Notes: generated from the letters alone by a model not told the origin. DNA of 64,000 nucleotides from an uncultured Planctomycetota bacterium (GCA_963787325.1 CAWBCK010000005.1:1520333-1584332), one strand, 5' to 3'; shown: positions 4,809 to 34,571, numbered from the stretch's first letter. Program-made: numbers and translations.

Positions 4809-7800
4809 GTGAAGATACCCATGGGTGCAAATGCGATACGGCTTGCTGTATCCGCAGCTTGCATGTTGACATACATTGCGCAGGCGAATGGACAGAGAGT
4901 CTGGCCAATTCCCGGCTACGAGAACACGTGCGGGAATTTTGGGTCGATGGAATCGGACAGCACCACTTCTCAGAGTCAGCATGCAGGAATCGACATTCAT
5001 GCACCTAAAGGGACTCCCGTTGTCGCCGCCAATGATCAAACCCTTGTATACATCTGGGACTCAGGTGGCGATGTGTACCAGGTTGAAGCGGAAGGGGATG
5101 CCGACGATCAGGTGAACGGGAACATCGTTACCTACATCTATGCGCACTTACGCGGCGTGACAGCAGAGTTTAACGATATTGGGGAGCGAGTTACCTCGGG
5201 TACCCAATTCGCGGCTGTTCGCGGATCCTCGAGTTTCGACCCGCACGGGGGTACATTCGACCACGTCCATTTCAACATAGAGACGTTGGGGCAGGCCCTC
5301 AACCCGCTATTGCACCTACCCAACTCAGACCCAATCGGAAGCGCCGGATACAGCTGGCCGGATCTGGGGCCTGTTTTTGTCAAGAGCGTAGATACGGGTC
5401 AGTACATTGACTGGACACAGCAGAGCATCTCCGGTCAGGTGGACATTATCGCTGAGATACGCGATGACCAGGGCTACCAGGCAAACGTGGGGTTGCGCGA
5501 ACTTGATGGTCGCTTCGACGGAATCGTCTCCTCAGTATATGAGGTCTCCTACTGGATTGAAGGTCCTGATGGCGCAGGGGTGGGTTCATCCTCGAATCCC
5601 CGCCTGCTCGTACGCTTCGACCGCGCCAAGTTTACCAGCCAGCAGGTGAGTGTCATTTACGATATTGGCAAGAAGGTGAACGTACGCTGGGACATTGACC
5701 CGAACGGCCTTTACTATAATTATTGCTTTATTCTGACACACACCGACAATGACGGAACAGTCGAGGCTGCCGATGCCAATGAGCACTGGGACACACGCCA
5801 GTGCCCGAATGGTGAGTATACTGTTCATATAATAACTCGTGACATCGCTGGCAACAACGCACACGGAACCGTCACCCTCTCTGTCCATAATGAGGACAAG
5901 ACTATTCCCACCGTGCTCGGTCATCGAGAGCAAACAACGCCAAGCACAAACATTGTCGTGACATTTAGTGAAGCGATGACCGAGTCGACCTTGACAACAT
6001 CGAATATCGCGGTCTTAGGCTCCGTGAGCGGTAGTCACGCCTGCGCCCTCAGCTTTGACCATTCAACCTATCAGCTCACGATCAACCCGAACACTGACTT
6101 CCAGTACAGTGAGCGAGTTACGGTCACGATTGGTACGGGAGTGAAGGATTTGGGCGGCAACGCCCTCGCGACTCCCTACCAGTTCGCCTTCAACATCATG
6201 GATGAACCGACTCAACCGCCAACGTCCATCTCGGTTGACGCGCAGTCATCCAATACCTCGATTGACCCGTACCAGCAGATCACGATCTCTGGCTCTGCCA
6301 AATACAATACGGGACTTGGCGTCACCGGAACCGCAACTATTAACGCAGGGAGCGGAACCTATACAGCGGCCGTCACAGGCGGGTTGTTTTCGCGGTCAGT
6401 CACAGGGCCTTCATCATCTGGATATATAACCGTAAATGTATCAGATGGGACTCTAAGCGGGAGTGATAGCGTTTACATCAGCGTGACTCCCAATGGAGGA
6501 ACTCCGACTACGATCTCGATACTTACGTTATCTACGACTACACCGATCTGGGCGACGGCTACGTGGAGTACTGGTACAAGGATGCGTTTCGCACGACTGA
6601 TGAATATGTGTCATTGATAGCCGTGATAACTAATGCGAGCCTGACGTCGAATCTGAACTTTCAGTGGAAGTACTACTATCCAGACGGAACACAGTATGGC
6701 AGCACACTCGACTGGCCGAACGCCTTCAGTCGCGATTGGGAATGGGGCTGGGGCGAGTGGGGATACCTGATCAGTGGAAACTCCATGGCGTATACTCCGG
6801 GCAAATACAAGGTCAGGTTCTACGTCAATGGTGATCGCAAGGCGACTCACTCCTTCGTGGTAGGTTGGGACTTCACTCAGCATTTCATGTGCAGGGACTA
6901 TGACGCTAGCTGGCAACCGATCGGGCAGACGAACGTGTTTAGTCCGACTGACCAAAAGGCGGTTGCCTTGCACCATTTCGAGTACCGTGCACAGGGACTA
7001 GACGTGAAGACAGAGTTCTTCGGTCCGGGTGGTACACTCTATTCCTCGAGTGAGGACTCTTTCACTGACGATCTCGGACCGAATGAATGGTATGACTGGT
7101 CTCGGCATGCATCGTGGATTTGGATAAGCGGGACGCCAGCCCAATACATGTGTGGCACATGGACAGTCAAGTTCTACGTAAAGAACCCGTCGAGTGGAGG
7201 CTGGGAGCAGAAGTACACTGACTACTTCCGTATAGAGGAACACACAGCCCCGACGATGGGTTCGATATCCGTGTCCCCGGTGTCTCCGATTGAAACACAA
7301 GTCATCACTTTGGCCGCATCGGCGTCCGATGATAATCATCTGGACCGGATCGATCTGTACTGGCAGGAAGATGGCGGTCCCGTGCAGACGCAGTCCTGGA
7401 CTGCCATCAACGCCGCAAGCCGGAGCGTTTCCTACAGCATCGGGGCCAAGGTTGCGGGGGCGGTCATCACCTTCTGGCGCAAGCCTGGGACGAATCAGGA
7501 AATCGCACGGAGAGCGAGCATCGGACGTTTACGATCCAGCCAGAGACGGTAACTATGCCGAGTATGCCCTCTGGACCCAGTGCTCTGAGAATCGGTCAAT
7601 GGGGCGGCTATAGTACCGGGGGTTCTACTAGCAGCCTGGAAGATCCGATACAGTACCAGTTTGACTGGGGTGATGGCACGATCTTGACGTGGGGGGCAAA
7701 GGAACAGAATCACTCATGGTCAACGGGTGGGCAATACTTGATCAAGGTGAAGGCCCGGTGCCAGGTCCATACCAACCGCGAATCGCAATGGTCTGACGTT

Positions 7801-9916
7801 CTGTCGGTGCTTGTCGATGGAACGAACCCGACGGTCACTATCAATAGCCCTACCACCGACGCCATATACACGACCGACCATACAACAATCGATATCGGCG
7901 GCTCTGCCTCAGACGATGCTGGTGTTATGCAGGTTCTTTGGTCAAATGATTGCGGAGGATCGGGTACGTGCGAGAGCAATGCGCCGGGGGGGACGATCAG
8001 TTGGGCTGCCTCCGGCATTCTCCTTCAACCTGGCCAGAACGTCATCACCGTTACTGCGCACGATGCTGACAACAATGTGGGCTCCGATACGCTCACCGTC
8101 ACACGACTCCTTCCGGCTCCGATCATCACCACAGAGAGTCCGTTACCCCCCGGCACAGTGGGAAGGCCTTATAGTGAGACGCTGGCAGCCATAGCAGGTA
8201 CGACGCCATACTCATGGTCTCTTGCATCGGGTCGTCTTCCCTCGGGTCTCAGTCTCAGTGACGGCGGTGTGATCAGCGGCACGCCTGGCGCAACGACACT
8301 CGCTAGCTTCACTGTGCAGGTTGCAGGCGCTGACGGCCTATCGTCAACATGCGAATTCCTCTTGGCTATCAATGAATCGAGCATATTCCATGTTTCCACA
8401 ACTGGGAACGATGCGTGGGATGGCTTGCGCTCGACCTGGGACGGCACACACGGGCCGAAGGCAACGATCCAGGCAGCCATAGACGTTGCCTTACCGGGTG
8501 GCGACGAGGTGATTGTACGCGCCCGGTAACTACACGGGAAGCGGTAATCGTGATATCGACTTCCGGGGGAAGGCCATCGTAGTGCGTAGTACAGATCCAG
8601 AGGATCCTGCTGTTGTTGGGGCTACTGTAGTTGACTGTGACGCTTCTGAGGCCGATCCACACCGTGGGTTCAGGTTTCATTCCGGGGAAACCCGCGACTC
8701 GGTTCTCGCCGGGCTGACTATCAAGAATGGGTATGGACCGATGGAGATAGTTATCGACTGGTCCGAATCGATTGGCGGCGGCATTGTCTGTATTGCATCC
8801 AGCCCGACCATCGAGCGTTGTGTTGTGAGTAGCAACACTGCAGGTTTCGTTGGTGGCGGGATCTACTGTGGTGGGATCTGGGCCGGCCCCTCTTGCGATC
8901 CTGCGATCGTGAACAACACGATCGCCCACAACAACGCTGAGGGAGGTGGTGGGATCTATTACGAGTTCTGTTGCCCGAGGATTGTCAGCAACACGATTAC
9001 AGGAAACGTGGCGATGCCCGGTGGAGGCATTTTCTGCTATGAGTCGTCAGGCGCCATGATTACAGACAACATGATTGCAGGCAACAGTGACGCAGGGATC
9101 TGGTGTGGTAGCGGTGAGTCGCCAACGATCATGAATAACACGATCGTGCACAACGGTACGGGGATCTGGTGTGAGGGCGGCGGGTCGTCTCCCGTGATCA
9201 TCAACAACATGATTATATGTAGCGGTACAGGGATCTATTGCTGTCAAAGCGCTTCGACAACAATCGTGAATAACACAATTGCGTACAACAGCAAGGGGAT
9301 TTGCCTTGAAGGTTCATCGCCTTCGCAAGTCATCAACACAATCATTGCCTTTAACTCGTTTGGCATCGACGACTCTGACACGCCAGTATCTCTTAGATGC
9401 AACTGCGTCTATGGAAACTCCGACTCCGATTATTCCGGTCTAGTCGACTTCACGGGCACCGATGGCAACATCTCCGCCGATCCAGGTTTTGTGCGAGCAC
9501 CAGTTCGGGCACGGACGGCGAGTGGGGTACAGCCGATGATGACCTAGGCGATCTGCACCTGCTGAGCTGGCTCCCGATGCATCAATACCGGCAGCAATCT
9601 TGATGTACCGGCAGACACGGCTGACCTTGATGGTGATAATGACACCGTCGAGCCACTGCCATTTGACATGGCAGGTCAGATGCGGCAGATCGGCGGCTGT
9701 GTTGACATCGGGGCTTATGAGTATGCAGTGCAAGGCGACATCGATGGCGATGGTTGCGTCAACGTGGGCGACCTTCAAGCGTTAGCCGCAGCGTGGAGTA
9801 GTCAAGGTGGGGTTTCCCCCGGTGACAACTGGAACGCTGCTGCCGATCTCAACTCCGATGGGTACGTGAACATAGGCGACCTGCAGATCCTGATCGCGAA
9901 TTGGGCCGGTCATTGA
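4809..9916 (+). CDS. Large secreted multidomain protein: M23-like peptidase, Ig-like/PKD domains, beta-helix, dockerin-like tail (several frameshifts)
   Basis: M23 motifs HAGIDIH, YAHL, HVHF; Big_5-like IVVTFSEAM; PKD YQFDWGDG; He_PIG-like LPSGLSL; GGGIYC repeats; GDIDGDGCVNVGDLQ tail. ORFs 4809, 6563, 7555, 8513 and 9668 join end to end. Confidence 0.75.
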
Positions 9917-10022
9917 ACTGACAGATCATTGACGAGGTATCAGAGGCAAGACTGGCTTGTATTCTGGCTTACACCCAGTAGTTAACAGGCAGCGACACAA
10001 AGATCAGTCGCCACCTGAAGCG

Positions 10023-10649
10023 TTAAGCGCCAGTTGCTGATTTGCCGGCAGGTTGTGAGGCCGTGACAGTTGTTTGCTGCCATCGAATGTCTACTGTCCA
10101 GCCAATGGCACCGAAGAACTTGGTGATGACATCGGTTGTGCGTTCACGTGCCTGGTCCAGTATCGCCGGTGTAGTACCTGCTTTGCCCACCAGCCGCTGA
10201 GCATGTGACATGGCTCGGTTGACCAGGTCTGTTTCTGCGCCTCCACCGGGCAGAACCCACAGACCACTTCGATCGATCCGGTAAAGCTGTGTATGCTCAT
10301 GATCTACTCGTGGCCTTCTCGGGGCAGGTATAGTCAGCAACAGAACAGCATGGCGCTGCTCAGGATCAATCGTTTCAAACCGACCTGCTGAAAGATCCGT
10401 CGCGATTTCCACATCACCCTTGACGACCAGTATCGCCTCGATGCCACCGGTATAGCCTTCCATCTGATAGATCTTCACATCGGCTACCGGCACACGAAGC
10501 ACCGCCAGAGACGCCAGTTGCTGGATCTGTTCAATCGATGGACAGCTGGTTGGTTGACAATTCCGGTCGCTGGCGCCGTTGTTGTGTAGAAGCCAACCAC
10601 CGGCAATACCGACGCACAATACGAGTAGAAGGGCGGCTGTGTTGTTCAT
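10023..10649 (-). CDS. DUF4230-like membrane-anchored protein
   Basis: N-terminal hydrophobic anchor, IEQIQQLASL, VKGDVEIATDLS, ILDQARERT. Start overlaps the stop of the E1 gene. Confidence 0.7.
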   Translation of the reverse strand: MNNTAALLLVLCVGIAGGWLLHNNGASDRNCQPTSCPSIEQIQQLASLAVLRVPVADVKIYQMEGYTGGIEAILVVKGDVEIATDLSAGRFETIDPEQRHAVLLLTIPAPRRPRVDHEHTQLYRIDRSGLWVLPGGGAETDLVNRAMSHAQRLVGKAGTTPAILDQARERTTDVITKFFGAIGWTVDIRWQQTTVTASQPAGKSATGA

Positions 10650-11327
10650 TACGCTGCTCCTTGTAGTTGTGCTACGCCGATTGACAGTTCATCGGTCAGC
10701 AGATTCATGGTGATATCCGGCTCCAATGGAAACCGTCTTAGCCACCGCGTTAGTCTCGATATCATCAGTCCAGCGGCGATATTGGCCGTATAGATGGTAG
10801 ACCGTGCTGTACAGGTACCCACATAAGCCTGCTCCGATGAAAACAATGTGCTTGGGTAGTATTGAGTCGACACTTGATCAGAGACGGTTAGTATACGCAC
10901 GACCTCAGCCGCCATCCGACCGTCAATGAACAGTGAGTCTGTAATCGCGGACAGCGTTCCAGATGATCTTTCTTGTGGCAATGCTATCGACGCAGCAAAA
11001 GACGATATTGCCGATCACCAGGCTGCGACGGAACCGCTCAGGCACGATCTGGATGCCGATATTTCTGTTGAGATGGCGACATAAATCCCCCGTGGCTTCT
11101 ACCTTTAGCCTACCCAGATCGGCCTCCATATAGCCCTGTGGACCCAGATTGACTGGCTCCACGAGGTCGAAATCCACCAGTTGCAGCCATGGTATACCTA
11201 TCGCCGACAGTTGCAGCGCTACTTGCCGGCCAATAGCACCGACGCCAATGACTGTACAGCGACAAACAGCAAGTCTATCCGGCGGTACAATATCTCGCTG
11301 GCGTAGATCACGGTCTTGTATGGTCAT
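10649..11327 (-). CDS. ThiF/E1-like adenylyltransferase (frameshift near 10950)
   Basis: GVGAIG, DFDLVEPVNLGPQG, GRLKVEA, FCCVDS, then in the next frame FIDGRMAAE and CTARST...AAGLM. Confidence 0.85.
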
Positions 11328-11740
11328 GAGCATTCTCCTTCCGATTGGGGATAGTTGTCATCTGGTAACAGTATGGTTCGGACAGGCTCACCGGTATCAC
11401 CTGGTCCGTAGAGCACCTTCAGACGGATCTTGTGCACCTGCTCATCATCCAGGCGAATCGATACTTCAAACAGGTACTGGCGGGCCTTCGGTATTCCGTC
11501 GCCGATCGCGGCATACAAGGCCAGCAGGATCGCCACAGCCCGGCCCTGCTCGTACTCTCTATACAGGGCTCGCAGGCCGACGTTGGGCACGATGTAGCGG
11601 TTCCAAACGGCAGCCGAACAGGCGACCGGCTTCTTGAAGTGACACCACGTGGCCCAAAGGCCCAGATCGACCAGATGACCTTCGGCAATAGCACGGGCGC
11701 GCGTAAGCGGCAGATTCTCCGATTGCTGCAACGTCGTCAT
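11324..11740 (-). CDS. DUF6573-like protein
   Basis: [44 protein letters not shown] overlaps on both sides. Confidence 0.7.
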
Positions 11741-12463
11741 AGCCACGACTCGGGCTCGGAAAGACCACATTCCCTGAGCTGCCAGTCCTCCAGATCCTCA
11801 AAGCCCAGCTCTTGTTCCTGGAGACCGAAGGCATCAGCAGGGCCCAGACCGAATGCATTGACCATGGCCGGCAGCTCCGCTTGAACGTTGGCCGTATATT
11901 CCTGCTTCCATGCCTCATGATCACTGGCCGCGAAAGGTTGCTGATAGTCGACCTCCACGGGGATCTGCATGTGGCCGCCGGGACCGGTGTTGAACCGCAG
12001 ACGGGCGTATGTCTTGCCGCTTTTGGCCAGGATGAACATCACCGCCCAGTCAGACCTGCCGAAGACACGCGCAAAGGTCTCTTCGTCCGTACTGCTCGGA
12101 TGGGCCGAGTCGCCGGGATGGGTGTGGATCCAGACGTCGCATGAACTGCTGGGGTTTGAGGCCGGCGTCGATCTGCTGGTCCAGGAAATCCGCCACGGCA
12201 TCGTCGTCAAAGCGTACACTGACCACGGTAACCTGCTGGCGGACCGTGACGAACTCGGCAACCAGCAGCAGATCTTTGGCCGGAGAGATCGCAAAGCCGC
12301 CGACCTCCAGTGGTCGCCGGTCGCGCATGTAGAGCAGCTTGGCCCAGGCAGTCGGGTTGAACCGCAGGACCGGTTGTGCCGGCAGGTTGATCCGGACAGG
12401 TTCGGGTGGCTCAGCTATCCGTGATGGACGCTTCTGCAGCTTGTTGTTCTTGTTCTTGTTCAC
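11737..12463 (-). CDS. JAB/MPN metallo-isopeptidase (frameshift near 12140)
   Basis: GTG start with AAAGGA RBS; EVGGF...[16 protein letters not shown] matches the E...HxH...S..D JAMM motif. Confidence 0.85.
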
Positions 12464-13431
12464 GTTCGATCCTTTCTTGCTCGTCTTTACAGGTTGGACA
12501 AAGACCATCTTCCAAACACGACACGCAACAGTCGTCATGACAATCGCTGCACTGCTCCATGCAGCCCTGGCAATAGTGGTCGTGGCAGTGTGGGCATTCA
12601 ACGAGGCAGTCTCGACAGACGCTCTGATCACACTTGCGGCAGTAGCTGATGCACTGCTCGCAGAAGTCGTGGTTGCAGGATTCACAGTAGTAGGTGTCGC
12701 CGTCGCCAAGGATGTAGCCGCAGTCCTCACAAGGAGTGCCGGACCAGTTATCGAGGGACACGTACGGGCTGTGGGGGTTGTAGGTCTGCAGTACCGAACG
12801 GACCAGCAGGAAGAAGTCGCAGATACGGCCTTCCTGCAATCGCCATTCGGATTGGCGCCGCGGCGTCGCCTTCGCACAGCCGGCCGTGGCTGATATGTGG
12901 ATGCGTGACCTCGTTGTCGGATGCGGCCGGATTGGGCTCCAGGGCCTCAATCGTGTAGACCTCGGCACTACCCGGACAAGCCAGAGAAGGCAGGCGCAAT
13001 TGGATCTCGAACGGTCCTAATCCAATGTTCTGCAGCTCGATCGGTTCGGTGGTGACGCTCAGCAACTGGCATTTACGGTCATACTGGTAGCCGTCAAACT
13101 CATCACGCAACTGCTGGAGATCACTAACCAGGTCACGCAGGCTGGGTAATGCAGGTTGCCGCTGCTTCTGGATGCGTTGCACGTGCTCGATCTCGTAGGC
13201 AATGTCCGGCAGTTGTTGCATCGCGGTTACCTGCAGACGTGAAATCGGCGATTGCTTGTGATGGATCTGGCACAAAGTAAGTTTTCGGCATACCTGCAGC
13301 AGTTGACGCATCCGCTCCGCCAGACAGTTCAGGTGATCCGGCCAGCCAAGGATCTGTCTTTGATGCATGGCCACAAGCTGATCATGAATGACGCCTGCCA
13401 GATGTATCTTGTCACGGTCGTTGCGGTTCAC
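12411..13431 (-). CDS. Prokaryotic E2-like protein with C-terminal poly-CxxC zinc-binding tail (frameshift near 12835)
   Basis: GTG start with [22 protein letters not shown] resembles the E2 HPN...G.ICL active-site motif. Followed by 10 CxxC pairs. Confidence 0.7.
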
Positions 13432-13523
13432 TGTTTGATCTCCTTGTAGGTGTAGACAAAGAAGGCACCCACCCGACCTCAGATGGCCAGGCAGGTGCCT
13501 CAAGATGGACGGCTGAATTCCTG

Positions 13524-13751
13524 CTAGACGCGGGCTCCTTCAATTTTCGTTGCCGTGATCGTGATCCGGTCATTCGGCTGCAGGACATAATCGCGGGCCA
13601 CAGGTTGGCGATTGACGCGGATCAGGTAGTCCTCTGCCTGGCAATCCGGCATGTGCTCGGCAAAGAACTTCTCAACGGTCGTGTTCTCGGCGATTTCCAC
13701 GAAGTCCGCAAAACCGCCTCCGTGATTGTTCAGGAACAATACCTTCATCAT
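13524..13751 (-). CDS. Ubiquitin-like beta-grasp protein (ThiS/MoaD-like), 75 aa
   Basis: AAGGAG RBS; ENTTVEKFF...YLIRVNRQPVARDYVLQPNDRITITATKIEGARV. Confidence 0.8.
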   Translation of the reverse strand: MMKVLFLNNHGGGFADFVEIAENTTVEKFFAEHMPDCQAEDYLIRVNRQPVARDYVLQPNDRITITATKIEGARV

Positions 13752-13935: not shown

Positions 13936-14724
13936 TTACTTCGCGGCATTCTGTCTTTCGAACAACACCGGCGCAATCTGCTCCAGCGGCGTCGGCTTCC
14001 AGTGCAGGTCTCGCTCGATCGGCAGGCCCAGGGGCCCCCGAACGGCCAGTAGCTCGGTCAGGCTGAAATAGCCGAGTTCTCTGTAATGGCCATCGACCAG
14101 CCCGAAAAGGGTGTCGTCGCCATCGAACTCGGTCGCCAGCCAGGTCCACGACGAATCCGGCGTAAAGTACTTGACGTAGGCGATCGCCTTGCCACCTTTG
14201 CTCTCCTGGGCATAGAGCCGCGGCAACTGCTTTCGCACCTCCTCGGGCATCAGCTGGTGACCTGGATGACTTGTCCTGGGCTGATCCCGCCTGGTACCGA
14301 CAGTCGTGACCTGCTGTTGCGGAATCGCGTTAGCCGGCACCGTGGGTTGGGCTTCTGGGCTCGGTTCGGCCTCTGGAGATGACGTGGGCGAGCTGATCAG
14401 TTGGACCTCATGGCCTCGTAAATCCAACACTACGCGACCGTTCTCAGTGCTCTGCCATTCGACACAGTCAGTGTTCATACCGCTGACCGTACCTGTTTGA
14501 TGTGCAGCAAAGGCGACCATGTATATGTCGGCACTCTGATCATCAACAGGACAAAAGCCTCTGAGATGCAGTTTGGACCCACGGATATCCGGATCAAAGT
14601 CGCCGGTCAGGTCCAGCGATACTTTCTGCTGTATGCCGGCAAGTTGCAGCCATCCTGAGACCTTGCCGGGCTGCGTATTGTCGAGTTCACCTTCAATCAA
14701 ATGCCTCGATACAGTCCAAGCCAT
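13936..14724 (-). CDS. DUF2958-containing protein with an N-terminal IEGELDNT domain; alternative in-frame start at 14904
   Basis: VKYFTPDSSWTWLATEFDG...LFGLVD...ELGYFSLTEL...GLPIERDLHW. AAAGGAG RBS before ATG 14724. Confidence 0.75.
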   Translation of the reverse strand: MAWTVSRHLIEGELDNTQPGKVSGWLQLAGIQQKVSLDLTGDFDPDIRGSKLHLRGFCPVDDQSADIYMVAFAAHQTGTVSGMNTDCVEWQSTENGRVVLDLRGHEVQLISSPTSSPEAEPSPEAQPTVPANAIPQQQVTTVGTRRDQPRTSHPGHQLMPEEVRKQLPRLYAQESKGGKAIAYVKYFTPDSSWTWLATEFDGDDTLFGLVDGHYRELGYFSLTELLAVRGPLGLPIERDLHWKPTPLEQIAPVLFERQNAAK

Positions 14725-15454
14725 GTCATGTGACTCCTTTCTGGGTTGGCCGCCTGATTTGGCAGATGACTGGCGATCCTTGGGCGGCACTTTAGGACCG
14801 GCAGCAGTAGGTTCAATCTGGGCTGCATGATGCTGATCACAACGCACAATCAGCACCAGCATTACCAGCAGCACGAACACACCAATCGCTATCTTGGCAT
14901 CCATAGGCTCTCCTTGTGTTTGCGTTATTGGGTATCGCCGTGGGGCATGTTAGTTACTTTGGGCGACAGACGATATTCGCAGGCCCTACAGATAATTATT
15001 ACAGATAGGAGGCGGGAATTAATGTAGTTGGTGCCCTGGCTCTATCGGGATAGTACTGGACTAATCGATAGGCTGAAGATGAATGAACTACCATGGCTAC
15101 GTCGACATTACCTGACAAACCACCCATCGTCACAAAGAGGTAGTTCTGCTTGGCATAGGCTCTACTGTTCGGTATCAGAAATGGCAGGAGTGTCAGGTGT
15201 CTCCGATAAACACCGGCTAGCCGTGCAATCGCGCCAGAGGCCGTGTTGCACCCGTCTAAACAAGCGATCTACAGGGCACCCTTTACCAAGAGAGTCGGTT
15301 ATGACATCAGATGACGTACAGCAGATCTACCCTTGGTACGATACCGATCGGTGGCTGCGCGAGCGACACTCTGGCAGCTAAGATCAGGAACGACCCCTCT
15401 TGGCCCTGTGAAAGTACCGGCCGCATGTGCATCCTGTAAGTACCCAGTTCTCGC

Positions 15455-18308
15455 TCAGTTCAGCGACCGGCTCCAGTGTGCCGCCAGGACCTGTAGGTCG
15501 GCTACGTTAATACAACCGTCGTCATTCAGATCGGCGTACTGATTCCAATTCGGCCACCCACCAACGCTGTCACTACCCCATGCTGCAATAACGGCTTGCA
15601 GATCACCTACATTGACGTAACCGTCGCCGTTGATATCGCCTATGGGGGCACATCGGACAATCACAGAGGCGTTGGTGGAGGAGTAATTCCCGGCGTTGTC
15701 CGCGCTACGAGCTTCGATTGTGTTGCTGCCGGGGGTCAATGCCACCTGGCAGGCCCAGCTACTCCAATCGTTCGTGCTGCTGGCGCTCTGCCAGGGACCG
15801 CCGTTTACCCGGACTTCTACCAGGGCCACCCCGCTGTTGCCGGCCCCCGGATCGGAAGCGCTCCCGCTTACGGTGATGGGTGAGGCGCTGATTGCCTGAC
15901 CATTGACCGGGGTGGTGATGGATACGGTTGGCGGTGACGTATCGGGGAGAGCGTATTTTGCGCTTATCGTGGCAATCGCCGACCAATTCCCGCCCCAGTC
16001 GAAGCCCTTAGCATTGATCGTATTGGTACCGGTCGATAGCTCCACTGGACAGCTCCAGCTGTCTGTACCGGTCGCGAGCTGCCACGGACCGTTGTTCACC
16101 TGGACGTACACCTTCAATATTCCGTAGGCTGGGACTACCTGGATCAGCAGCAGTGCCAAACACCGTAATGGACGGGCTCACAAACTCCTGCCCGCCGGCC
16201 GGATACGTAATTGATACGGTCGGAGGCACTGTGTCAGGCGCTGGCGTCTGAAAATATCTGAAGGAGGAAGGATCACCCATCACATCATCAGAATTGCGGG
16301 TTGTTACCCACCAGCAAAACGCATGCTCGTTCGGGAGCCAGTTCGGGTACCAGCCAGCGACAATATCGCAGCTTGTCGTCCCAGTTATTGGCCCCGCACT
16401 GGTGAAGGACCCGTCAGTCATATCTCGTATGAATAGGGTGTAGCTCGCCGCTCCAGGCACTGGTGTCCATGAGAACAGGGGGTTTCTATTCGGGATTACC
16501 GGCCCCGGCCCGGATGTCGCACCTGGGGAAGCGGGAGCAGGTGGCGGCAATACTGCGGAATTGTCTACTGTGAATGAGTTGGTATCTGTCGGCGATCCGG
16601 AGCCCCCCACGTCCGTAGGGGTGATTCGAATCCGTACGTTGGCGTTATTCACATAGCCCAAATCGGCTATGCTATCCCAAAGGTAGTACGTATTGTAAGC
16701 GAGGTTGGAACTCAATCCTGATGTGCCGCAGCTGCCCATAAAGTACTCTGTCGCTGCATGCCATGTAGCGCCACCGTTGCCGCTGTACTGTACTTGGATA
16801 CTACACACATCTGATTCGTGGTCGTATAGTTGAAACCCAACATATACCCCTCCGTTCTGCCCCTGCGGTGTGACCACAGACACTTGCGGCTCATAGTTAT
16901 TGTTTGCCTTGACCGTGAAGTAATACGTCGTCGATATCTGGCTTGAGATGCTATTGGTGAATGCATACATGTTCCACCAGTAGGAGTGACCAAGGGTGAG
17001 GTTGTAGAGGGTGTAGTTCGTGGTTGGTCCACTAGAGATCGTGTAAGTCGTTATCCCCGTGCCCGCTGTCACGTCTTTAACCTGGAGCAGGTAGCTAGTG
17101 GCATTGGTCACCTGATACCACAAAAGACTCTGGGTGGTTCCCATTATTGTCGGGCCGGGACTGCTGCTCCCCCCCGGGGCAATCAGGACTGGAGCCGATG
17201 GGGCCGGCGATTGGATCGTAAAATAATACGTCGCTGAAAGCGGGCTTGAAACACCACCGTTGAAAGCATACATGTTCCACCAGTAGGCGTGGCCAGCTTT
17301 TAGGGTAAGCGAGTCGACTCGTTGTCGATCCACTGGGGATCGTGTAGGTCGTTATCCCCGTAGCGGCCGTTATGTCCTTCACTTGCAGCAGGTAGCTGGT
17401 GGCATTCGTCACCTGATACCATTGGAACGTCTGACTGATACTGCCGATCGTTGGTCCGGGGCTCGTGCTGTTGCCTGGCGCGATCAGAACCGGAGCTGAA
17501 ACCCCCGTTGCGGTACGCGACAGGAAATCTTCGGCCGACCAACCGCTCCCGATGCCCCCGTCCCAGCTAATGTACCACCAGACGTAGGCGTACGTTCCAG
17601 TACCGACGGTGGCAACAACAGGCCCATTTAAGACTGTGCCTGCGGCGCCCACATTCACTGTGGGGGCAGTGGATCCGCCCCCTCCCGGAGTTGGACGGAC
17701 ACGTACGCCATCGTACAAGCATGTAACCCGATCGTTTGCTCCTCGGATGACGGTAGAGTCAATTCCCTGCGCCGCAGCGCGAGCCGTAGTCAACCAGCTT
17801 GTGAAGGCGCCATTATTGAAGGTGGACCACGGAATCCAGTTGCCCGGGGGCAAACCGTACGGATCGGCCGCAATGAAAACGTCGTGGGCAGCCGAGGCAT
17901 TGTAAGATGCACTGCTGAGGAGTTGCTGGACACTGTACGAAGGGTGCGCGTATACGTTTATCTGCCACAGACCGCATGAGTGCTCGTTCGCATTCCAAAC
18001 CTCTGCATCCAAGCGGAACGAGGACTCGGCACCGGCGACCGCTACCGCGTTGACGAGGGCACCCCCGCTAAATCCCGCGTCGTGTGCCGCCTGGCCTACC
18101 TGGCCCGCAGTCAGATATGTTGCCGTCAACGGCCCCGAAATCGCGTCACTCTCTTGGACAGGCAACACGCTGCTGGTAGCGTCCGCCAGGTCTGCATTGG
18201 CTAGACCCAGAGGCGCCCTCCTCGCGCAATGCCCGCACTTAGCGCTAACCCCGTGAGAACCGCCAACAGATAATGAGCCCGACAGGTTCGATAGGCCAAT
18301 GCACACAT
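15455..18308 (-). CDS. Large secreted protein: lysozyme/SLT-like domain, SH3-like domain, repeated Ig/FN3-like modules, dockerin-like tail (frameshifts near 18220, 17315, 16125)
   Basis: GAGGAG RBS and signal peptide MCALAYRTCRAHYLLAVLTGLALSAG; AVAVAGAESS...GLWQIN...WIPWSTF; GVRVRPTPG...WWYI...GWSAEDFL; GDINGDGYVNVGDLQ tail. Confidence 0.75.
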
Positions 18309-18839
18309 TGGATTGATCTCCTCACCCTTGATCCGACTTCGTTCGACTGTGCTGGTGACACATGCATGGGCATTGTACAGCGTGCCGTCCGGTTGCGCCC
18401 ATCCCCATTGACGAGCTTTCTGGAGTATATATTGCTAGCGACAGGCTGAGCATAACATTCTGCTCTTAATGCCCGGTTACTTGATGCACGCGCCGAAAAC
18501 TCCTATCTCATGATGTGGCAGCCACTTCCACGTAGAGCATTTGCTGCGCTTTTGCGGGTGGAGCCACTGCTTACGCTCGTCGGTAACCATTCCTGTCATC
18601 GGTCTGAAAAACGCGTGTCAGACGTATCAGCGTGTCAGACGACTTTGACATCTACATCTAAGTACCTAAGGTATAGAGCATAGGTAAAGGTGCGAATCAA
18701 CGCACTGATACCGGCGAGTAGGATGCCCGCACCGGGCTCTTGCCTTGGAACAGACGCAGAGACGTTGGTTAGGGTACGGTATCTGTGTTACCGAAAGGAT
18801 AGCAGCGGCTTATTCCGACAAGGACGCAACTGCCCTCTT

Positions 18840-19901: not shown

Positions 19902-21501
19902 GAGACCGTCTGAGTATACACCCAAACCCCCATCTCTTTTCGGTTTGGGGGGGTACTCGGCGGTCTTACTTGTAGCTATTGCGCCCGGACATGCGGCCGC
20001 CGAAGCAAAAACTCTCGTTTCAGGCCGGTGCGGCCCCACCTGACGCGATTGCCGGTCGCCGTTTCACCCGGCTGACCATAGTTTCCTCAGATTGCAGGCC
20101 ATACAGACCAGACGCCACTCGCTACGCATCCGCTCCATGCCGTTCAACAAAAACTGCCGGAAGCCCAACCCTCGCTTGATCCAGCCGAAGATCGGCTCGA
20201 CGATCCATTTCCGCTGGGCATACGTTTCCCGCCCGCGCTTCGTTCGCAACTTGCGGGCCATCCGCTCCTTCGTCGTCAGCCCCGCCGGCGGCCGACCTCG
20301 CGGACTGGCTGGCATCCTTTCGCCATGCTTGAGCCGGCCCGTGGCGATGTACGCATCCAGAAGGTTCCGCTCGGCCCACTGCACGTTCTGCTCACTGAAG
20401 TAGCCGCTGTCCGAAGATATCTTCCCAATCCGATGCCCTCGCCCCACATTCGTGCGAGCCTGTTGGGCCATCGGCTGGAACTGTTGCTTGTCGTTCGCCT
20501 CGTTCGTCACATCCGCCGCCACGATGATCTGGTGTTGGCGATCCACCACCGCCTGCGCGTTGCCGCACTGGTCGAACCCCTTGTTGCTGACCTTCATGAT
20601 TTTCGTCGTCGGATCCGTGAAGCTGTACTGGGCCTTCGCGGGCGGTACTGCCTGGGCCGGCCCGATCCGACGGCCACCCTTGGGCTTGTCGCCTGGCTTG
20701 TCAGGCTCTTCTTCCTGACGCTTGCATTCCTCTTCGGCGGCAGCCTTGGCCTGTGCTTCCAGCGCCTTCGCGCCTCCCGGATCTTCGCCAGGCGGCTCTG
20801 CCGCCGGGCCAGGGCCTCCGGCAGTTCGTCCCCGCGACGATCCACCCCGTAGGCCCGATCTTCCGCCTCATCCGCAGATTTGGCCTGCGACAGCAACTGA
20901 CGGATCTCCTTGCGCAGCCGAGCCTCTTCCTCTTTCATCCTTCCGTAACTCATCGCCTTGTGTCGCGAGGCATTCGCCCGGATCTTCGTGCCATCCAATG
21001 CCACGTGCCCCAGCTTCACCAGCCCCGCCTGCTGGCACAGTCGCAGCACCTGTACGAACAGCCCTTCCAGTTCTGTCAGGTGCTGCTTGCGAAAGTCGCT
21101 GATCGTCCGGAAGTCCGGCACATCCTCCTGCACGATCACCCGCCAGGCCGCATCTCGCTGACACCGCTGCATGATTCGTCGCGAACTGAATACGCCCTGC
21201 GTGTAACTGTACAGCAGCAGCGTGGTCATCATCCGCGGGTGGTACGGCGGATAGCCGCGCTGCTCTCGCTCGTACTTGCCGAAAATGGCTGACAGATCCA
21301 GTTCCTTGACCACGTCCAGCACGAAAAAGACAAGGTCGTTTTCCGGCAGCCACTCTCGCGGCGATGGCGGCAATAGCCAACTTTGATCCGGATTCCAGGG
21401 GCGGTAGGTCTTACTCATCCTTAAGCCTCGATCTGAAAGGATCTCTCCTTACCTGAACCGCCCATTATAACATATCTGTCAACTGTTACTCGGACAGTCT
21501 C
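19902..21501 (-). mobile_element. IS1182-family insertion sequence, 1600 bp
   Basis: Terminal IRs GAGACCGTCTGAGTA and GAGACTGTCCGAGTA (reverse complement). CTAG duplicated at 19898-19901 and 21502-21505. Confidence 0.9.
20064..21418 (-). CDS. IS1182-family DDE transposase (frameshift near 20765)
   Basis: DUF772-like PYHPRMM...GVFSSRRI...PDFRTISDFRK; ALDGTKIRANAS; DSGYFS; RKWIVEPIFGWIK. Confidence 0.9.
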
Positions 21502-26806: not shown

Positions 26807-26808
26807 GA

Positions 26809-27862
26809 TTACTTATCCCCCTTCTTCCTATCGATGCGCTTGCGCTGGCTTTCTATTCGCTTGACATCCTTGACGGTTTTCAGGAAGTCCTTCTCGACGC
26901 GGGATGGCGCAGCCAGGGTCTGCTGGCGGTACTTCTCATACTCCTGCCTGGCCTTCTCCAGCGCCTGCTCATGGCTGACCGTGCCGGCGTGCTTAAGGAT
27001 CTCACGACCGCTCATCTGCAGGAAATCGTCCAACCTGGCCACCCAGTCTCTCATGTACATCGGCTGCCGATTCAGGGCCTGTAATTCCGCCAATTCAAGA
27101 TACGCCGTCACCATGCGATTCAGCACTTCGAGTTCATCCCGCCGGAGATAGTTCTTGGCGACTTCGGCGTCAGCCTTGTGAATGGATCCGCCGGGCCAGT
27201 TGGTCATGCCCATATTGGGCTGACTGGCATCCGCCCGTTCGGCAATGATCTCCGCAGCGGTATGGCCGTGGGAAGCCCAGTGCATCTTGTTCTGCACAAC
27301 CTTGAAAAAGCTCCTGCGAGATATCCGCCCGCGGATCGTAGTCAATGCTGGTAGCATATATATCCAGGACCTTCCGCCAGAACACCTTCTCCGACGAGCG
27401 GATATCGCGAATTCGTGCCAGGAGTTCGTCGAAGTAGTTACCGCCCCCGGCCTCCTTGAGACGCCTGTCGTCCAGGGCGAAGCCCTTGATGAGATATTCG
27501 CGAAGCCGCTGGGTAGCCCAGATGCGGAACTGTGTACCCCGCAGGCTGTTGACTCGGTAACCTACCGAGATAATCGCATCGAGGTTGTAGTGTTCGACGT
27601 CCCGCACTACCTGGCGACTGCCTTCCTTTTGAACTGTTGCAAATCTTGCAACGGTTGCCTCTGGTGCAAGCTCTTGCGATTCATAAATGTTCTTCAGATG
27701 GCGACTTATACCGGATTTATCCACCTGGAACAGTTCAGCCATCTGCTGCTGCGTCAGCCATAAGGTATCGCCCTGAAACCGGCACTGAATACGGGTCTGG
27801 CCGTCTTCGGTCTGATAGAGCAGGAACTCGCCCTGGGGGCCCTGGGGGACAAGACCAGTCAT
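26809..27862 (-). CDS. RhuM-family protein (frameshift near 27320)
   Basis: WLTQQQMAELF, YNLDAIISVGYRVNSLRGTQFRIWAT, RIRDIRSSEK, VQNKMHWA, AKNYL. Confidence 0.9.
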
Positions 27863-31688: not shown

Positions 31689-31698
31689 GACTCTCCAC

Positions 31699-33438: not shown

Positions 33439-33440
33439 AC

Positions 33441-34571
33441 CTATTCTCCGAGAATCTGGGTGGTAAACTCGCCGATATTCCACATGGCTGACCCTGGTAG
33501 CGTCAGCCAATCTGCGTACTGCCTGTTGTAAACGCGCGAGCCTTCTGCCGTATTGTCTGGCGTCTTGCAGACCAGCCACAGGTTGTCCGACTGGGCGAGC
33601 AGCGATTCAATGCGGCAGTTTGAGTCTCTTGTAACAATGACCCCGTGGCATGCCTGCGTGACAAGTTTCCTCTTGATGTACTCCTCAAGATGACCATCAT
33701 TGAACCCGTATCCGAGGAACAAGAAGTGTGTGGCCTTATCGATCGCGGCGTCAGCAGACTGAAGCAGCTCTTGTCTATACCGCTGAAGTGTTTGGTACTT
33801 CGACAGCCCTGGCGTGATCATCACTCGTTCGGCGAACTCCGGGGGCGTCCACATCCATGCGTTGTTTTCCACGAGCGTGTTGCGATGAAAGAAGTAGTTC
33901 AGGGAACCGTGGACTTTGTAGAGTCGAACATGCTTCTTCCGTCGATAGATGGTCTTCATTGTGCGACCGTGGCAAATCTGCTCAGGTTCCAGCAAGGCGC
34001 GGTCAATCGCCTGCCAGTCCCGTCTTCGCTCGACACCGCCGAAGAGGCCGTTTGTATAGACAATACCCGCGAAATCACAGGAGTATTCAAATAGCATGTC
34101 GTAGTTCGGTGTAAGCACATGAAGGGTGCGGTTGCCTTCAGGAAGCGTATCGACAAGTCTCTTCAACAGTCGGCTCGCTGGCCATTCTGCCGTTCCCCCC
34201 GCTATCTGATAGGCAAATGCCCTGTCTAGGCTGGCGACAAACGTTCCCGTGATACCGGTGAGGATCTTAAGCAAGTCCTGCTCATTCACGCTATTGAGGG
34301 CGGTCTCCAAATCCGTTCCTACCTGAAGTGAGTGCTCGACAGTCTCCCATTCTGCTTTCTGTGCTTCTGTCAGTTGGTGGCTTTGGATGCCAGCCTGAAG
34401 AGCACCCGTCAAGGCAGACATCCCGAACCCGGCATCCAAGGCACACGACATCCCCGTTCCGAAGAAGACCAAGGGCGTATTCCGAAAGAATGCCCGCATA
34501 GCCTCAAGAGCCATATCTGGTGTCAATGAGGGTAGCGGGGTCCGCTCGCCGTTTCCTGCCATGTCGTTCAT
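33441..34571 (-). CDS. SIR2-like (SIR2_2) NADase
   Basis: FFGTGMS, TPNYD, LYKVHGS, FLGYGFNDGHL. Confidence 0.85.
   Translation of the reverse strand: MNDMAGNGERTPLPSLTPDMALEAMRAFFRNTPLVFFGTGMSCALDAGFGMSALTGALQAGIQSHQLTEAQKAEWETVEHSLQVGTDLETALNSVNEQDLLKILTGITGTFVASLDRAFAYQIAGGTAEWPASRLLKRLVDTLPEGNRTLHVLTPNYDMLFEYSCDFAGIVYTNGLFGGVERRRDWQAIDRALLEPEQICHGRTMKTIYRRKKHVRLYKVHGSLNYFFHRNTLVENNAWMWTPPEFAERVMITPGLSKYQTLQRYRQELLQSADAAIDKATHFLFLGYGFNDGHLEEYIKRKLVTQACHGVIVTRDSNCRIESLLAQSDNLWLVCKTPDNTAEGSRVYNRQYADWLTLPGSAMWNIGEFTTQILGE

Follow-up and report, generated by a model that had tools for sequence, protein, structure and literature searches.

A window of 64,000 nucleotides from an uncultured Planctomycetota bacterium carries what is probably a complete conjugation and deconjugation cassette for a ubiquitin-like protein (Ubl), a representative of a large unnamed family on integrated mobile elements of Planctomycetota. 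The distinctive set of features comprises (i) a tag ending in Gly-Ala, (ii) an E1 of 222-232 aa, (iii) an E2 with ten CxxC pairs, (iv) an Rpn11-like JAB peptidase, and (v) a hairpin. The sequence-only reading had proposed a self-contained Ubl/E1/E2/JAB protein-tagging cassette with its own architecture, and this core claim is supported, having held in every computational test run (folds, invariant residues, and synteny).

All six co-oriented genes announced for 10023-13751 are present on the minus strand, in the order Ubl, E2-like, JAB, DUF6573, ThiF/E1, and DUF4230; directly upstream lies a DUF2958 gene:

13936..14904, minus strand: membrane-anchored DUF2958 protein, 322 aa (Pfam DUF2958, E 1.1e-16, residues 219-305)
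13524..13751, minus strand: Ubl, 75 aa (beta-grasp model and family alignment)
13462..13501, minus strand: GC-rich 17-bp hairpin followed by CTTTGT (scan and folding, z -2.1)
12411..13431, minus strand: E2-like protein with a GTG start (frames read, fold search, invariant HPH...C)
12489..12731, minus strand: Cys-rich tail of the E2 with ten CxxC pairs (53-sequence alignment)
11737..12463, minus strand: JAB/JAMM metallopeptidase (Pfam Prok-JAB, E 8.9e-7)
11324..11740, minus strand: DUF6573 protein, 138 aa (Pfam, E 4.5e-13)
10649..11333, minus strand: minimal ThiF-type E1 (Pfam ThiF, E 4.8e-19)
10023..10649, minus strand: DUF4230 protein, 208 aa, the last operon gene here (Pfam, E 5.2e-11)

The last five genes do overlap: E2 and JAB share 53 nt, the JAB/DUF6573 and DUF6573/E1 junctions are each a shared ATGA, and E1 and DUF4230 share 1 nt. 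The hairpin separates the Ubl gene from these five. The JAB gene starts with GTG at 12463 and has AAAGGA upstream. The DUF4230 protein has an N-terminal hydrophobic anchor, and a hydrophobic N-terminus is seen in the translation of the DUF2958 protein. As had been stated, no thiamine, Moco, or cysteine-synthase genes were matched among the window ORFs scanned.

The four core proteins

The Ubl has a core of 72 aa that ends in ...TKIEGA and is followed by the two-residue extension RV. Its AF2 model, based on a 45-sequence alignment, has a pLDDT of 91.5. Foldseek matches the model, always with a probability of 1.00, to RnfH, Caldiarchaeum ubiquitin, a B. fragilis ubiquitin-like protein, SUMO2, ubiquitin, and ThiS; Caldiarchaeum ubiquitin is within the top three matches (E 3e-4), and TtuB, like ThiS, is among the fold matches. 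Model and fold search thereby agree with the beta-grasp fold first read from the 75-aa sequence. A Gly-Ala end is carried by 56/57 Ubl ORFs of the family, as the exact C-terminus in 10 of the 57 and with 1-12 further variable residues in 46. G71-A72 is invariant, and 0/57 Ubl ORFs end at G. The GA end with its variable extensions is a predicted precursor signature. A conjugated Ubl with a Gly-Ala end is unusual, which counts against a conjugation reading.

The hairpin behind the Ubl gene recurs in the family. It was seen in 5/5 Ubl-E2 spacers folded, and a stem unbroken over 8 bp or more is found in 29 of 47 such spacers versus 5, 7, and 2 of 47 coding controls. The element is terminator- or attenuator-like.

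The E1 is the stand-alone ThiF-type enzyme that had been described. It matches Pfam ThiF and consists of one complete adenylation domain (232 aa in the intact paralogue) with every adenylation-site residue and one invariant cysteine, C174, in the crossover loop. The residues invariant in 48 sequences are R11, Q12, G30xG32xxG35-R36, D54, D56, K77, D116, R139, and C174. A confident model of the E1-Ubl complex places the Ubl tail in the nucleotide site with a score of 0.89, the best of 3 controls reaching 0.02. The mark applied to this score is attained by 58/80 solved complexes and 2/110 mismatched pairs, and passing it may stem from likeness to the solved MoeB-MoaD and ThiF-ThiS complexes. In the model, Ubl residues 63 and 65-72 contact E1 residues 30, 32-35, 114-118, and 164-178; the runs share at least 88% of contacts, with a partner pLDDT of at least 91.

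In the E2-like protein, a UBC-type core stands between a three-helix N-terminal domain and a zinc-finger tail. The UBC fold on which the sequence-only reading had staked the 12411-13431 protein was recovered as a UBC-type core by fold search, together with an invariant HPH...C. Across 53 sequences, H177, P178, H179, C186, and G188 are invariant; the HPH codons lie at 12895-12903 and the Cys codon at 12874-12876. Eukaryotic E2s carry an HPN motif, to which the HPH here corresponds. The AF2 model has a pLDDT of 95.7, and 36 of the 47 Foldseek matches listed are E2/UEV entries (probability up to 0.98, E 0.018-0.17), the best among those listed being eukaryotic E2/UEV chains. These E-values are weak: no match among those listed has E ≤0.001, and the target-normalised TM is about 0.5. 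The UQ_con/UBC and Prok-E2 Pfam profiles match 0/53 members at E up to 1. An intact paralogue of the E2 lies at L003:10195-11208.

The CxxC pairs of the E2 tail are spaced at a 15-residue period, and 18 of its 20 cysteines are kept in all 53 sequences or in no fewer than 90% of them. In the last pair C311 is invariant, while full conservation of C314 is limited to the 8-sequence alignment. A PDB profile search with the E2 matches the Cys-rich tail only, to the TFIIH p44 RING-like domain (9e-4), the MID1 B-box (1e-3), and FYVE fingers; Pfam Siva matches 8/53 members and B-box-type models 4/53. The tail is predicted to form a multi-zinc array.

The JAB protein bears out the JAMM-motif claim, with a Pfam Prok-JAB match and the full motif at 12085-12126. 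Residues E41, H101, H103, S111, and D114 do not vary across 21 sequences, and among solved structures the profile search places the Caldiarchaeum Rpn11-like protein nearest (E 0.001).

Family spread and comparison with named systems

The gene order Ubl-E2-JAB-E1 is kept in 40/49 loci with enough flank, nearly all from Planctomycetota, and in both cassette copies of this genome. Because the order recurs so widely, the arrangement of the four core genes is not a matter of chance, and the synteny on which the tagging claim had been made to depend is present. Per gene, Ubl is found in 52/59, JAB in 60/63, and E1 in 50/57 assessable loci. The family comprises 1101 cluster representatives whose members are annotated only as "hypothetical protein", and no model for Ubl or E2 was found in Pfam, NCBIfam, PADLOC, or PHROG. 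It seems to be a large family neither named nor tested before.

The six-gene set with DUF6573 and DUF4230 built in holds for this locus; across the family, both are accessory. DUF6573, which sits here between JAB and E1, occurs in 6/57 assessable loci. DUF4230 lies downstream of E1 in 2/52 assessable loci and upstream in some others; in the second copy of this genome and in L031 it is upstream of DUF2958. Of the 36 loci whose upstream flank reaches 6 kb or more, 18 have a DUF2958 gene upstream on the same strand. All three are variable add-ons outside the family core.

Membership in Bil, Bub, CBASS, or PRTRC was rejected by the tests run (profiles, E1 size, tag end, and fusions), a correction to the comparison with Bil/Bub-type and PRTRC-type systems in the sequence-only reading. 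BilABCD has the same four functions in the same order, and a separate E3 gene is absent in both. The Bil E2 is proposed to choose the target itself, according to PMC11601596 and PMC10557695. Unlike Bil, the cassette has a single-domain E1 (26 bits to PADLOC BilD, over positions 197-318 of 453), an E2 that keeps the HPN-like HPH and has both a head of three helices and ten CxxC pairs in its tail, and a tag that ends in Gly-Ala rather than Gly. PADLOC gave 0 matches for Ubl and E2 and, for JAB, only generic CBASS-type "JAB" models at E up to 0.1, in a model set that includes BilD and may lack BilA-C.

The Caldiarchaeum/Asgard-type ubiquitin operon consists of Ub, E1, E2, a small RING finger protein, and Rpn11. 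The cassette resembles it in that the JAB is nearest to an Rpn11-like protein, the Ubl is near Caldiarchaeum ubiquitin, the E2 fold is like that of eukaryote-type E2s, and a zinc-finger module accompanies the E2. A further likeness is a predicted precursor tag with an extension that a JAMM peptidase would cut; Caldiarchaeum-type ubiquitin is described as such a precursor, with a C-terminal extension for JAMM peptidase removal, in PMC5654768. However, the cassette tag is GA, not GG (GA in 56/57 ORFs), no UBC profile matches its E2 (0/53), and its zinc module is an E2-fused CxxC array, weakly B-box/RING-like (E about 1e-3), with no separate small RING E3 gene. Its E1 is minimal and its setting is that of bacterial mobile elements.

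PRTRC (ParB-related, ThiF-related cassette) belongs to proteobacterial conjugative elements and combines a ThiF-type enzyme with small partner proteins. Both systems have such an enzyme and small partners on integrative/conjugative elements beside plasmid-type genes, and the cassette neighbour DUF2958 adjoins ParB and ArdC-like zincin genes on pCHQ1. In contrast, the cassette E1 scores 36.8 and 28.8 bits versus a PRTRC_ThiF (TIGR03736) cut-off of 144.75, and the NCBIfam PRTRC protein models (A, C, D, E, F) match none of Ubl, E2, and JAB, the JAB having only a 16-bit Cap3 match in NCBIfam. No ParB-related genes lie beside the cassette in 9 loci scanned.

Type II CBASS (Cap2/Cap3) uses an E1-E2 fusion with a CD-NTase as the "tag". 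The cassette E1 matches PADLOC Cap2 models, up to E 2e-15, in the adenylation part only, whereas its E2 is encoded on its own and does not match Cap2, and no CD-NTase family was matched near the cassette in the window ORFs scanned. Bub (6E/DUF6527) shares the E1 adenylation domain through BubCD (E 8e-7). As summarised in PMC11601596, Bub proteins are fused, a DUF6527 serine protease is included, and the intermediates are oxyesters formed without a catalytic Cys; the cassette proteins are separate, C174 (E1) and C186 (E2) are invariant, and no operon ORF matches DUF6527. The ThiS/MoaD-ThiF/MoeB pathways differ in that the cassette has a fixed E2 and JAB and lacks biosynthetic partner genes in the ORFs scanned.

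Mobile-element setting and possible roles

The cassette sits at the edges of integrated elements. Phage_integrase lies within 8 kb of it in 6/9 loci scanned, where other neighbours include a serine recombinase, a T4 coupling protein, TraG/HerA-type ATPases, and Cdc6-like ATPases. In the complete genome G344, an integrase is ~2 kb from the cassette, with chromosomal genes beyond. Distribution is patchy (16/401 genomes of the phylum, 12/20 in one family), and a single genome has as many as 5 matches; the present genome has two cassette copies, one beside IS fragments.

The element is proposed to carry the cassette as a module for conflict or establishment. A role alongside DUF2958 and DUF6573 in establishing the element or in anti-defence is tentatively placed first, slightly ahead of a Bil-like defence; its leads are the position of DUF2958 upstream of the cassette in 18/36 loci and the plasmid contexts of the two proteins. 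DUF2958 is found on 199 plasmids, 132 of them conjugative, and its context was examined on three: among these, it adjoins MobC/relaxase on pPla86_1 and lies between an ArdC-like zincin and ParB on pCHQ1. DUF6573 occurs on 12 plasmids of other phyla without any Ubl genes, in arrays with ssb or radC. Evidence against establishment is that the 9 loci scanned showed no relaxase within 8 kb and that the E2 was found on 0 of 72,556 plasmids; absence of the E2 from the phage collections and IMG/VR searched carries no weight either way. Control of the element's own proteins takes whatever probability the roles weighed here leave over.

A Bil-like defence, protecting host and element as a pair from phages or rival elements, is possible, with the cassette tagging a phage structural or replication protein and merely travelling on integrative elements as cargo. 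The gene order is that of BilABCD, and the bacterial Ubl/E1/E2 systems tested so far are all described as antiphage or stress-related in PMC11601603, PMC11601596, and PMC10557695. Element ends are the usual position of cargo, and defence genes are found nearby: AbiE in L009, ThsB-TIR and SLOG in L043, and Dam with PD-(D/E)XK in L020. G344 has a type I RM with TIR as well as ThsB-TIR, and the window carries a type III RM, SIR2 with HerA, and SNF2 at 24-37.5 kb. However, those in the window are at least 10 kb off, beyond an IS element, and the commonest companion, DUF2958, is a conjugative-plasmid gene rather than a defence gene. PADLOC models match neither Ubl nor E2; there is no BilA/BilB/BilC-type match, and the 26 bits of the E1 to BilD cover the active adenylation part. 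No recognised regulator family (e.g. WYL domain) was found in the ORFs scanned, a scan that did not specifically cover CapH/CapP.

Frame breaks and proposed mechanism

The three frameshifts reported for the window are real features of the assembly, with one extra base at each of three sites relative to the genome's second copy: about 12841 (E2), 12135 (JAB), and 10940 (E1). They could mean that the operon is a decaying relic, with all breaks true mutations and both copies dead. In line with this, all four single-base indels fall outside homopolymer runs, and IS fragments flank the second copy. Yet that copy, 83% identical, reads through all three window break sites and has one frame break of its own; the break sites differ, and each copy is intact at the other's sites. 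In the same assembly, rpoB spans 3.8 kb in seven pieces, rpoC is in about ten, RhuM is split mid-domain, and lnt has an in-frame TGA, so the background indel rate is equal to or higher than that of the operon. Away from the breaks, each protein keeps all of its invariant residues. A relic is therefore improbable, and because rpoB and rpoC are also fragmented and the second copy reads through, errors of assembly are the likeliest source of the three frameshifts; polishing thus matters for the record, not for the biology. Taken as they stand, the breaks (three in the window copy, one in the other) leave the cassette only putatively functional in this strain.

A sulfur-carrier or cofactor pathway, in which the ThiF-type enzyme would only adenylate and thiocarboxylate the Ubl as for ThiS/MoaD, without conjugation, fits the small ThiF/MoeB-like E1 with its crossover-loop Cys, its best NCBIfam matches (ThiF/MoeB models, all far under cut-offs, e.g. 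65.7 versus 275 bits), and ThiS and TtuB among the Ubl fold matches, but is highly improbable given an invariant-Cys UBC-type protein and JAB as fixed partners (60/63 and 50/57 loci), a GA end with removable extensions instead of GG, no ThiG, MoaE, rhodanese, or cysteine-desulfurase in the window or neighbour ORFs scanned, and a mobile-element-borne, multi-copy cassette.

For the conjugation cassette, the following mechanism is proposed. Ubl transcripts would be made in excess because the hairpin would end part of transcription after the Ubl gene. The Ubl would be synthesised as a precursor from which the Rpn11-like JAB trims the variable residues after the invariant Gly-Ala end. The homodimeric, minimal ThiF-type E1 would then take the Ubl tail into its ATP site and adenylate it. 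Cys174 in the crossover loop may hold the Ubl before it is handed, as a putative thioester, to the UBC-type E2 at its invariant Cys186. The zinc-finger tail and three-helix head of the E2 would stand in for a separate E3 and pick the target, which would be tagged on lysine; the JAB may also be able to undo the tag.

An integrative/conjugative element might use such tagging offensively on cell entry, securing its establishment by tagging its own early proteins or those of the host, for example defence or degradation factors. This version is unlikely; if true, the cassette would be the first bacterial mobile-element Ubl system that acts for the element and not as host immunity. Planctomycetota are often discussed for eukaryote-like traits, and the cassette would add to this phylum a new, tractable relative of the eukaryotic E2/RING arrangement.

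Layout and frame integrity of the cassette

Among bacterial ubiquitin-like conjugation systems, the Ubl-E2-JAB-E1 cassette represents an apparently new architecture; it is widely distributed within a single phylum, travels on mobile elements, and has escaped annotation. Folds, invariant residues, and synteny support the core of the sequence-only reading, a protein-tagging system with its own architecture, and the molecular mechanism proposed for the cassette, which rests on the same three lines, is probably correct. The six genes named in that reading all lie on the minus strand, and the last five overlap as described, by 53 nt (E2/JAB), an ATGA (JAB/DUF6573 and DUF6573/E1), and one base (E1/DUF4230). 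These five genes (E2, JAB, DUF6573, E1, and DUF4230) are translationally coupled.

Features of the operon
13936-14904, minus strand: membrane-anchored DUF2958 protein (Pfam E 1.1e-16), a seventh co-oriented gene 185 nt upstream
13524-13751, minus strand: Ubl, no Pfam match
13462-13501: hairpin between the Ubl and E2 genes, a 17-bp GC-rich stem followed by CTTTGT
12411-13431, minus strand: E2-like protein, in two pieces, neither with a Pfam match
11737-12463, minus strand: JAB (Pfam Prok-JAB E 8.9e-7), GTG start at 12463 with AAAGGA upstream
11324-11740, minus strand: DUF6573 protein (Pfam E 4.5e-13)
10649-11333, minus strand: ThiF/E1 (Pfam ThiF E 4.8e-19)
10023-10649, minus strand: DUF4230 protein (Pfam E 5.2e-11)

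NCBIfam and PADLOC returned only generic ThiF/MoeB, Cap2-type "E1-E2", and Cap3-type "JAB" models for the operon, all far under their curated cut-offs. Sigma-70-type promoter matches were no more frequent than chance (2 found, 3.0 expected). Large proteins of secreted type, several of them frame-split, adjoin the operon: on one side an SLT_3 lysozyme-like domain with repeats, Big_7, and dockerin (15458-18321, minus strand), and on the opposite flank (4809-9916, plus strand) an M23 peptidase with Big_5 and a beta-helix-like repeat protein with a dockerin-like end.

A second copy of the cassette in the same genome (L003) has the gene order DUF4230, DUF2958, Ubl, E2, JAB, DUF6573, E1, followed by IS fragments; its E2 head (G000:C5:86194-86787 of the assembly) is 94% identical, and it is collinear with window positions 13760-10676 at 83% DNA identity. 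Relative to L003, the window carries extra single bases at ~12841 (E2), ~12135 (JAB), and ~10940 (E1), while L003 has one extra base, located at the E2 stop; the breaks of either copy are read through by the other. The same kind of damage affects housekeeping genes. The rpoB model matches in seven separate pieces (G000:C3:61197-65017) and the rpoC model in about ten (G000:C3:56762-60944), both in alternating frames and below the cut-off. This fragmentation shows an assembly full of single-base indel errors and also explains its completeness estimate of 79.5%. Because the essential 3.8-kb rpoB has at least six frame changes, the background indel rate is equal to or higher than the three breaks per 3.7 kb of the operon. 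Pseudogene decay was rejected as the main reading on this background rate and on the different positions of the breaks in the two copies; the frame breaks are very probably assembly errors. In the window, the RhuM gene is frame-split mid-domain, and lnt (apolipoprotein N-acyltransferase; LNT_N then CN_hydrolase; 58061-59620, plus strand) contains an in-frame TGA at 58976-58978 that is probably another assembly error.

Components of the proposed conjugation set

The Ubl family (57 ORFs) shares a 72-aa core with a mean column identity of 75% that ends in K-I-E-G-A in 56 of 57 members, the exception being locus L007. Ten ORFs stop exactly at GA and 46 have 1-12 more variable residues; the window copy ends in GA-RV and the second copy in GA. 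Known modifiers end in Gly-Gly or Gly rather than in Gly-Ala. When compared with the PDB by sequence only, the Ubl profile gave nothing usable (designed repeat proteins, and MoaD at E 1). The AlphaFold2 model (pLDDT 91.5) is matched by Foldseek to RnfH, Caldiarchaeum ubiquitin, a B. fragilis ubiquitin-like protein, SUMO2, ubiquitin, ThiS, and TtuB, all with a probability of 1.00 and TM of 0.6-0.75. Ubl is thus modeled with a beta-grasp fold, and its variable C-terminal extensions bear the mark of a precursor that undergoes processing.

The Ubl-E2 spacer is constant in length (76-144 nt). All five spacers that were folded form a hairpin (z -2.1 to -4.0), three with a clear U-run, and 29 of 47 spacers contain a stem of 8 bp or more without interruption, versus 5, 7, and 2 of 47 same-length coding controls. 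Partial termination or 3′-end protection at this hairpin could yield more tag than enzymes. Variant arrangements include a tandem double Ubl (L017:5190-5690) and, at locus L021, a Ubl that is terminal in a 465-aa ORF and a JAB within an ORF of ~780 aa (L021:6488-7882 and 8527-10875).

The E2-like protein belongs to a large family. A full HMMER scan of its head (201 aa) against 1.84 billion representatives (clustered at 50% identity) retrieved 1101 proteins at E ≤ 1e-3 and 740 at E ≤ 1e-10, mostly 320-370 aa long. When the intact 338-aa paralogue served as query in a word-indexed search, 1082 clusters (90% identity) were retrieved at E ≤ 1e-10. All 120 cluster matches listed for E2 lack a precomputed Pfam domain and are named just "hypothetical protein"; in the ESM Atlas, E2 falls in an unnamed cluster of 2546 members, mainly Planctomycetota. 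No match to E2 was found among 72,556 plasmids or 50,697 phage records, nor in IMG/VR with two peptide patterns. One family protein of 733 aa (P0007) consists of two complete E2 units in tandem.

Seven residues are invariant in the 53-sequence E2 alignment (T128, G139, H177, P178, H179, C186, and G188); Y217-N218 and S221 are nearly so, and P219 is invariant in the 8-sequence alignment only. The HPH…C and YNPxSP motifs presumably correspond, at the motif level, to the eukaryotic HPN…C and PNPxxP. The tail carries ten CxxC pairs between Cys 234 and 314, which would be expected to hold about five zinc ions per chain. UQ_con and the Prok-E2 models match no member of the alignment (0/53) at E ≤ 1, and tails match Siva (8/53) or B-box-type models (4/53) in Pfam. 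A profile search of PDB sequences matched the tail alone, to the TFIIH p44 RING-like domain (9e-4), the MID1 B-box (1e-3), and FYVE fingers.

The AlphaFold2 model built on the 53 sequences (pLDDT 95.7) comprises three long helices (residues 3-89), a region of helix, beta-meander, HPH loop, Cys186, and two helices (98-215), and a ladder of short hairpins (247-302) before a terminal helix. Of the 47 Foldseek rows listed against the PDB, 36 are, by title, entries centred on E2 or UEV proteins (Ubc13, UBE2A, UBE2L3, UbcH5, UbcH10); probabilities range from 0.63 to 0.98 and E from 0.018 to 0.17, none ≤ 0.001, with a target-normalized TM of 0.42-0.53 over ~135 columns. These fold matches and the HPH…C motif argue for the E2-like assignment of the 12411-13431 protein, whose predicted UBC-type core is flanked by two extra modules.

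E1 is 222-232 aa long and, to our knowledge, the smallest so far paired with an E2. Across 48 sequences it conserves R11, Q12, G30xG32xxG35-R36, D54, D56, K77, D116, and R139, and a single invariant cysteine, Cys174, in the crossover region. Its nearest solved sequences span the superfamily: the UBA7 active domain (3e-10), BubCD (8e-7), PaaA, MccB, TcdA, and MoeB. In PHROGs, the only matches are three families of unknown function, for E1. The complex prediction for two E1 chains and one Ubl passed with a score of 0.89 (best of three controls, 0.02); of 80 solved complexes, 58 reach the pass mark, as do 2 of 110 mismatched pairs. The runs share at least 88% of their contacts, the partner pLDDT is at least 91, and the predicted contacts place Ubl residues 63 and 65-72 against E1 residues 30, 32-35, 114-118, and 164-178, beside Cys174. 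Since MoeB-MoaD and ThiF-ThiS complexes have been solved, this pass shows likeness to them and is not proof of binding. JAB (~230-250 aa) keeps E41, H101, H103, S111, and D114. Profile comparison ranks the Caldiarchaeum Rpn11-like protein (E 0.001) first among its solved relatives, ahead of Rpn11 and CSN5.

Spread, accessory genes, and element setting

A pattern derived from the 8-sequence E2 alignment, scanned over one genome per species, located 70 loci, nearly all in Planctomycetota MAGs (Phycisphaerae, Pirellulales, Planctomycetaceae), with single records labeled Victivallales, Actinomycetes, Thermodesulfobacteriota, and "archaeon". E2 occurs in 16 of 401 sampled genomes of the phylum (14/243 high-quality) and in 12 of 20 genomes of one family, with up to five matches per genome. 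With HMMs built from this genome's own proteins and only loci with sufficient flank counted, the genes are syntenic in other genomes: the order Ubl-E2-JAB-E1 holds at 40 of 49 loci, and Ubl (52/59), JAB (60/63), and E1 (50/57) are the usual partners. L051 missed the full-order count solely through overlapping stop-to-stop ORFs.

The proposal that DUF6573 and DUF4230 are built into the system did not hold, and both were ruled out as core parts. DUF6573 is present at 6 of 57 assessable loci (8/70 over all loci, plus both copies of this genome), and DUF4230 lies downstream at 2 of 52 and upstream at 0 of 36 (L031 has it upstream within a shorter flank); DUF4230-like ORFs form one BLAST cluster across 9 loci. 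DUF2958 lies upstream at 18 of 36 assessable loci, in every case in the orientation of the cassette. The interval between the DUF2958 and Ubl genes holds two additional unnamed ORF families (22 and 12 loci), and a DUF6745 gene lies directly upstream of Ubl at L015:6396-7499, L042:4076-5176, and L065:6458-7519. In a Planctomycetia subgroup (G156, G344, L050, L054, L063; sites L081:15018-17594 and L080:1825-4297), the cassette has companions on either side, a classical AAA ATPase (PF00004, ~500 aa) and a gene of ~340 aa with no known function; an AAA ATPase so close to a ubiquitin-like system could point to a Cdc48-like role.

The accessory domains also occur on plasmids. DUF6573 is found on 12 (Bacillota, Actinomycetota, Pseudomonadota), all without Ubl genes, in small-gene arrays with ssb (pALVIN01) or radC (pTHECO01). 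The DUF2958 domain is found on 199, of which 132 are typed conjugative: it is divergent from MobC/relaxase in the planctomycete plasmid pPla86_1, flanked by an ArdC-like zincin gene and a ParB gene in pCHQ1, and among small unknown genes in a Nostoc plasmid. As a lead, not a test, the contexts on these three plasmids point towards a role in early entry or establishment.

The GC content of the window is 0.51-0.58 up to ~48 kb and 0.61-0.64 beyond, and the window has no tRNA gene to mark an integration site. A run of defence-type genes spans 24104-37559 on the minus strand, from ResIII through SNF2.

Mobile-element and defence features of the window
20067-21448, minus strand: IS element/DDE transposase (DUF772 + DDE_Tnp_1), frame-split, low-GC part
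24104-26812, minus strand: ResIII (type III restriction), low-GC part
27862-29733, minus strand: N6_N4 methylase (type III RM), with a frame-split RhuM between it and ResIII
29673-31796, minus strand: HATPase protein
31702-33606, minus strand: HerA, with SIR2
33444-34724, minus strand: SIR2
34917-37559, minus strand: SNF2 helicase
39267-41591, plus strand: PrimPol/PriCT/VapE-like replication protein, low-GC part
50913-51959: tyrosine integrase, high-GC part

Pfam neighbors were surveyed over ±8 kb at nine related loci. A tyrosine integrase is present at six (L009, L020, L033, L037, L043, L065), with a serine recombinase and type IV coupling protein also at L020, HerA/TraG-type ATPases at L009, L043, and L065, and Cdc6-like ATPases at L043 and L065. 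Defence-type neighbors are AbiE (L009), ThsB-TIR and SLOG (L043), and Dam with PD-(D/E)XK (L020). Within ~1.5 kb of E1, six of the nine loci run into an integrase or ordinary chromosomal genes, and the complete genome G344 reads type I RM/TIR, IS66, AAA ATPase, Ubl-E2-JAB-E1, one ORF, integrase, chromosomal genes. These arrangements place the cassette at the boundary of integrated elements. The copies in single-contig genomes such as G344 and G156 are intact.

Relation to known systems and significance

Work on bacterial ubiquitin-like conjugation has lately gathered pace with CBASS Cap2, Bil, and Bub, which come from proteobacteria-rich data sets and have been framed as antiphage immunity. 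The cassette would be a fourth architecture beside these three.

The closest system, judged by its components, is the Caldiarchaeum-type operon (PMC5654768). Both have a tag in precursor form, a protease resembling Rpn11, an E2 with a eukaryote-like fold, and a zinc-finger partner; the cassette differs in its GA end, fused zinc array, minimal E1, and mobile-element setting. The gene order is identical to that of BilABCD (PMC10557695, PMC11601596), whose E1 has tandem domains and a Cys domain, both absent from the cassette E1. Bil membership was rejected on this E1 domain make-up, a score of only 26 bits for the cassette E1 against the PADLOC BilD model, and the GA tag end. Ubl and E2 have no match among the PADLOC or NCBIfam models. 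PRTRC was rejected on the E1 score (36.8 bits; cut-off 144.75), Bub on the separate proteins, the unmatched DUF6527, and the presence of both cysteines, and CBASS on the absence of an E1-E2 fusion and a CD-NTase. A sulfur-carrier role was considered and rejected.

Element establishment or anti-defence is a tentative role for the cassette, and Bil-like defence is only slightly less likely. None of the classes 6a-6e of Iyer et al. 2006 comes from Planctomycetes. Literature searches returned nothing on DUF6573, nothing pairing ubiquitin-like proteins with DUF2958 (only irrelevant papers for DUF2958 by itself), and nothing on Planctomycetota ubiquitin-like/ThiF/JAB mobile-element systems, Burroughs, Iyer and Aravind 2011 (prokaryotic RING fingers) and the Bil/Bub supplements lying outside the search. 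The leading-region paper PMC11541004 does not mention ubiquitin, JAB, RadC, or DUF.

The distinctive features of the cassette are the Gly-Ala tag end, the Rpn11-like protease, and an E2 that keeps a eukaryotic HPN-like motif. The long zinc-finger array fused to E2 could serve as an in-cis E3, and the built-in transcriptional device should give tag in excess of enzymes. Neither Ubl nor E2 is recognized by Pfam, NCBIfam, PADLOC, or PHROGs, so that the annotation and defence-finder pipelines now in use will overlook the family. Lying at the element edge with neighbors characteristic of conjugative plasmids, the cassette may let the element use protein tagging for its own establishment, a question that is approachable in the few genetically tractable planctomycetes.
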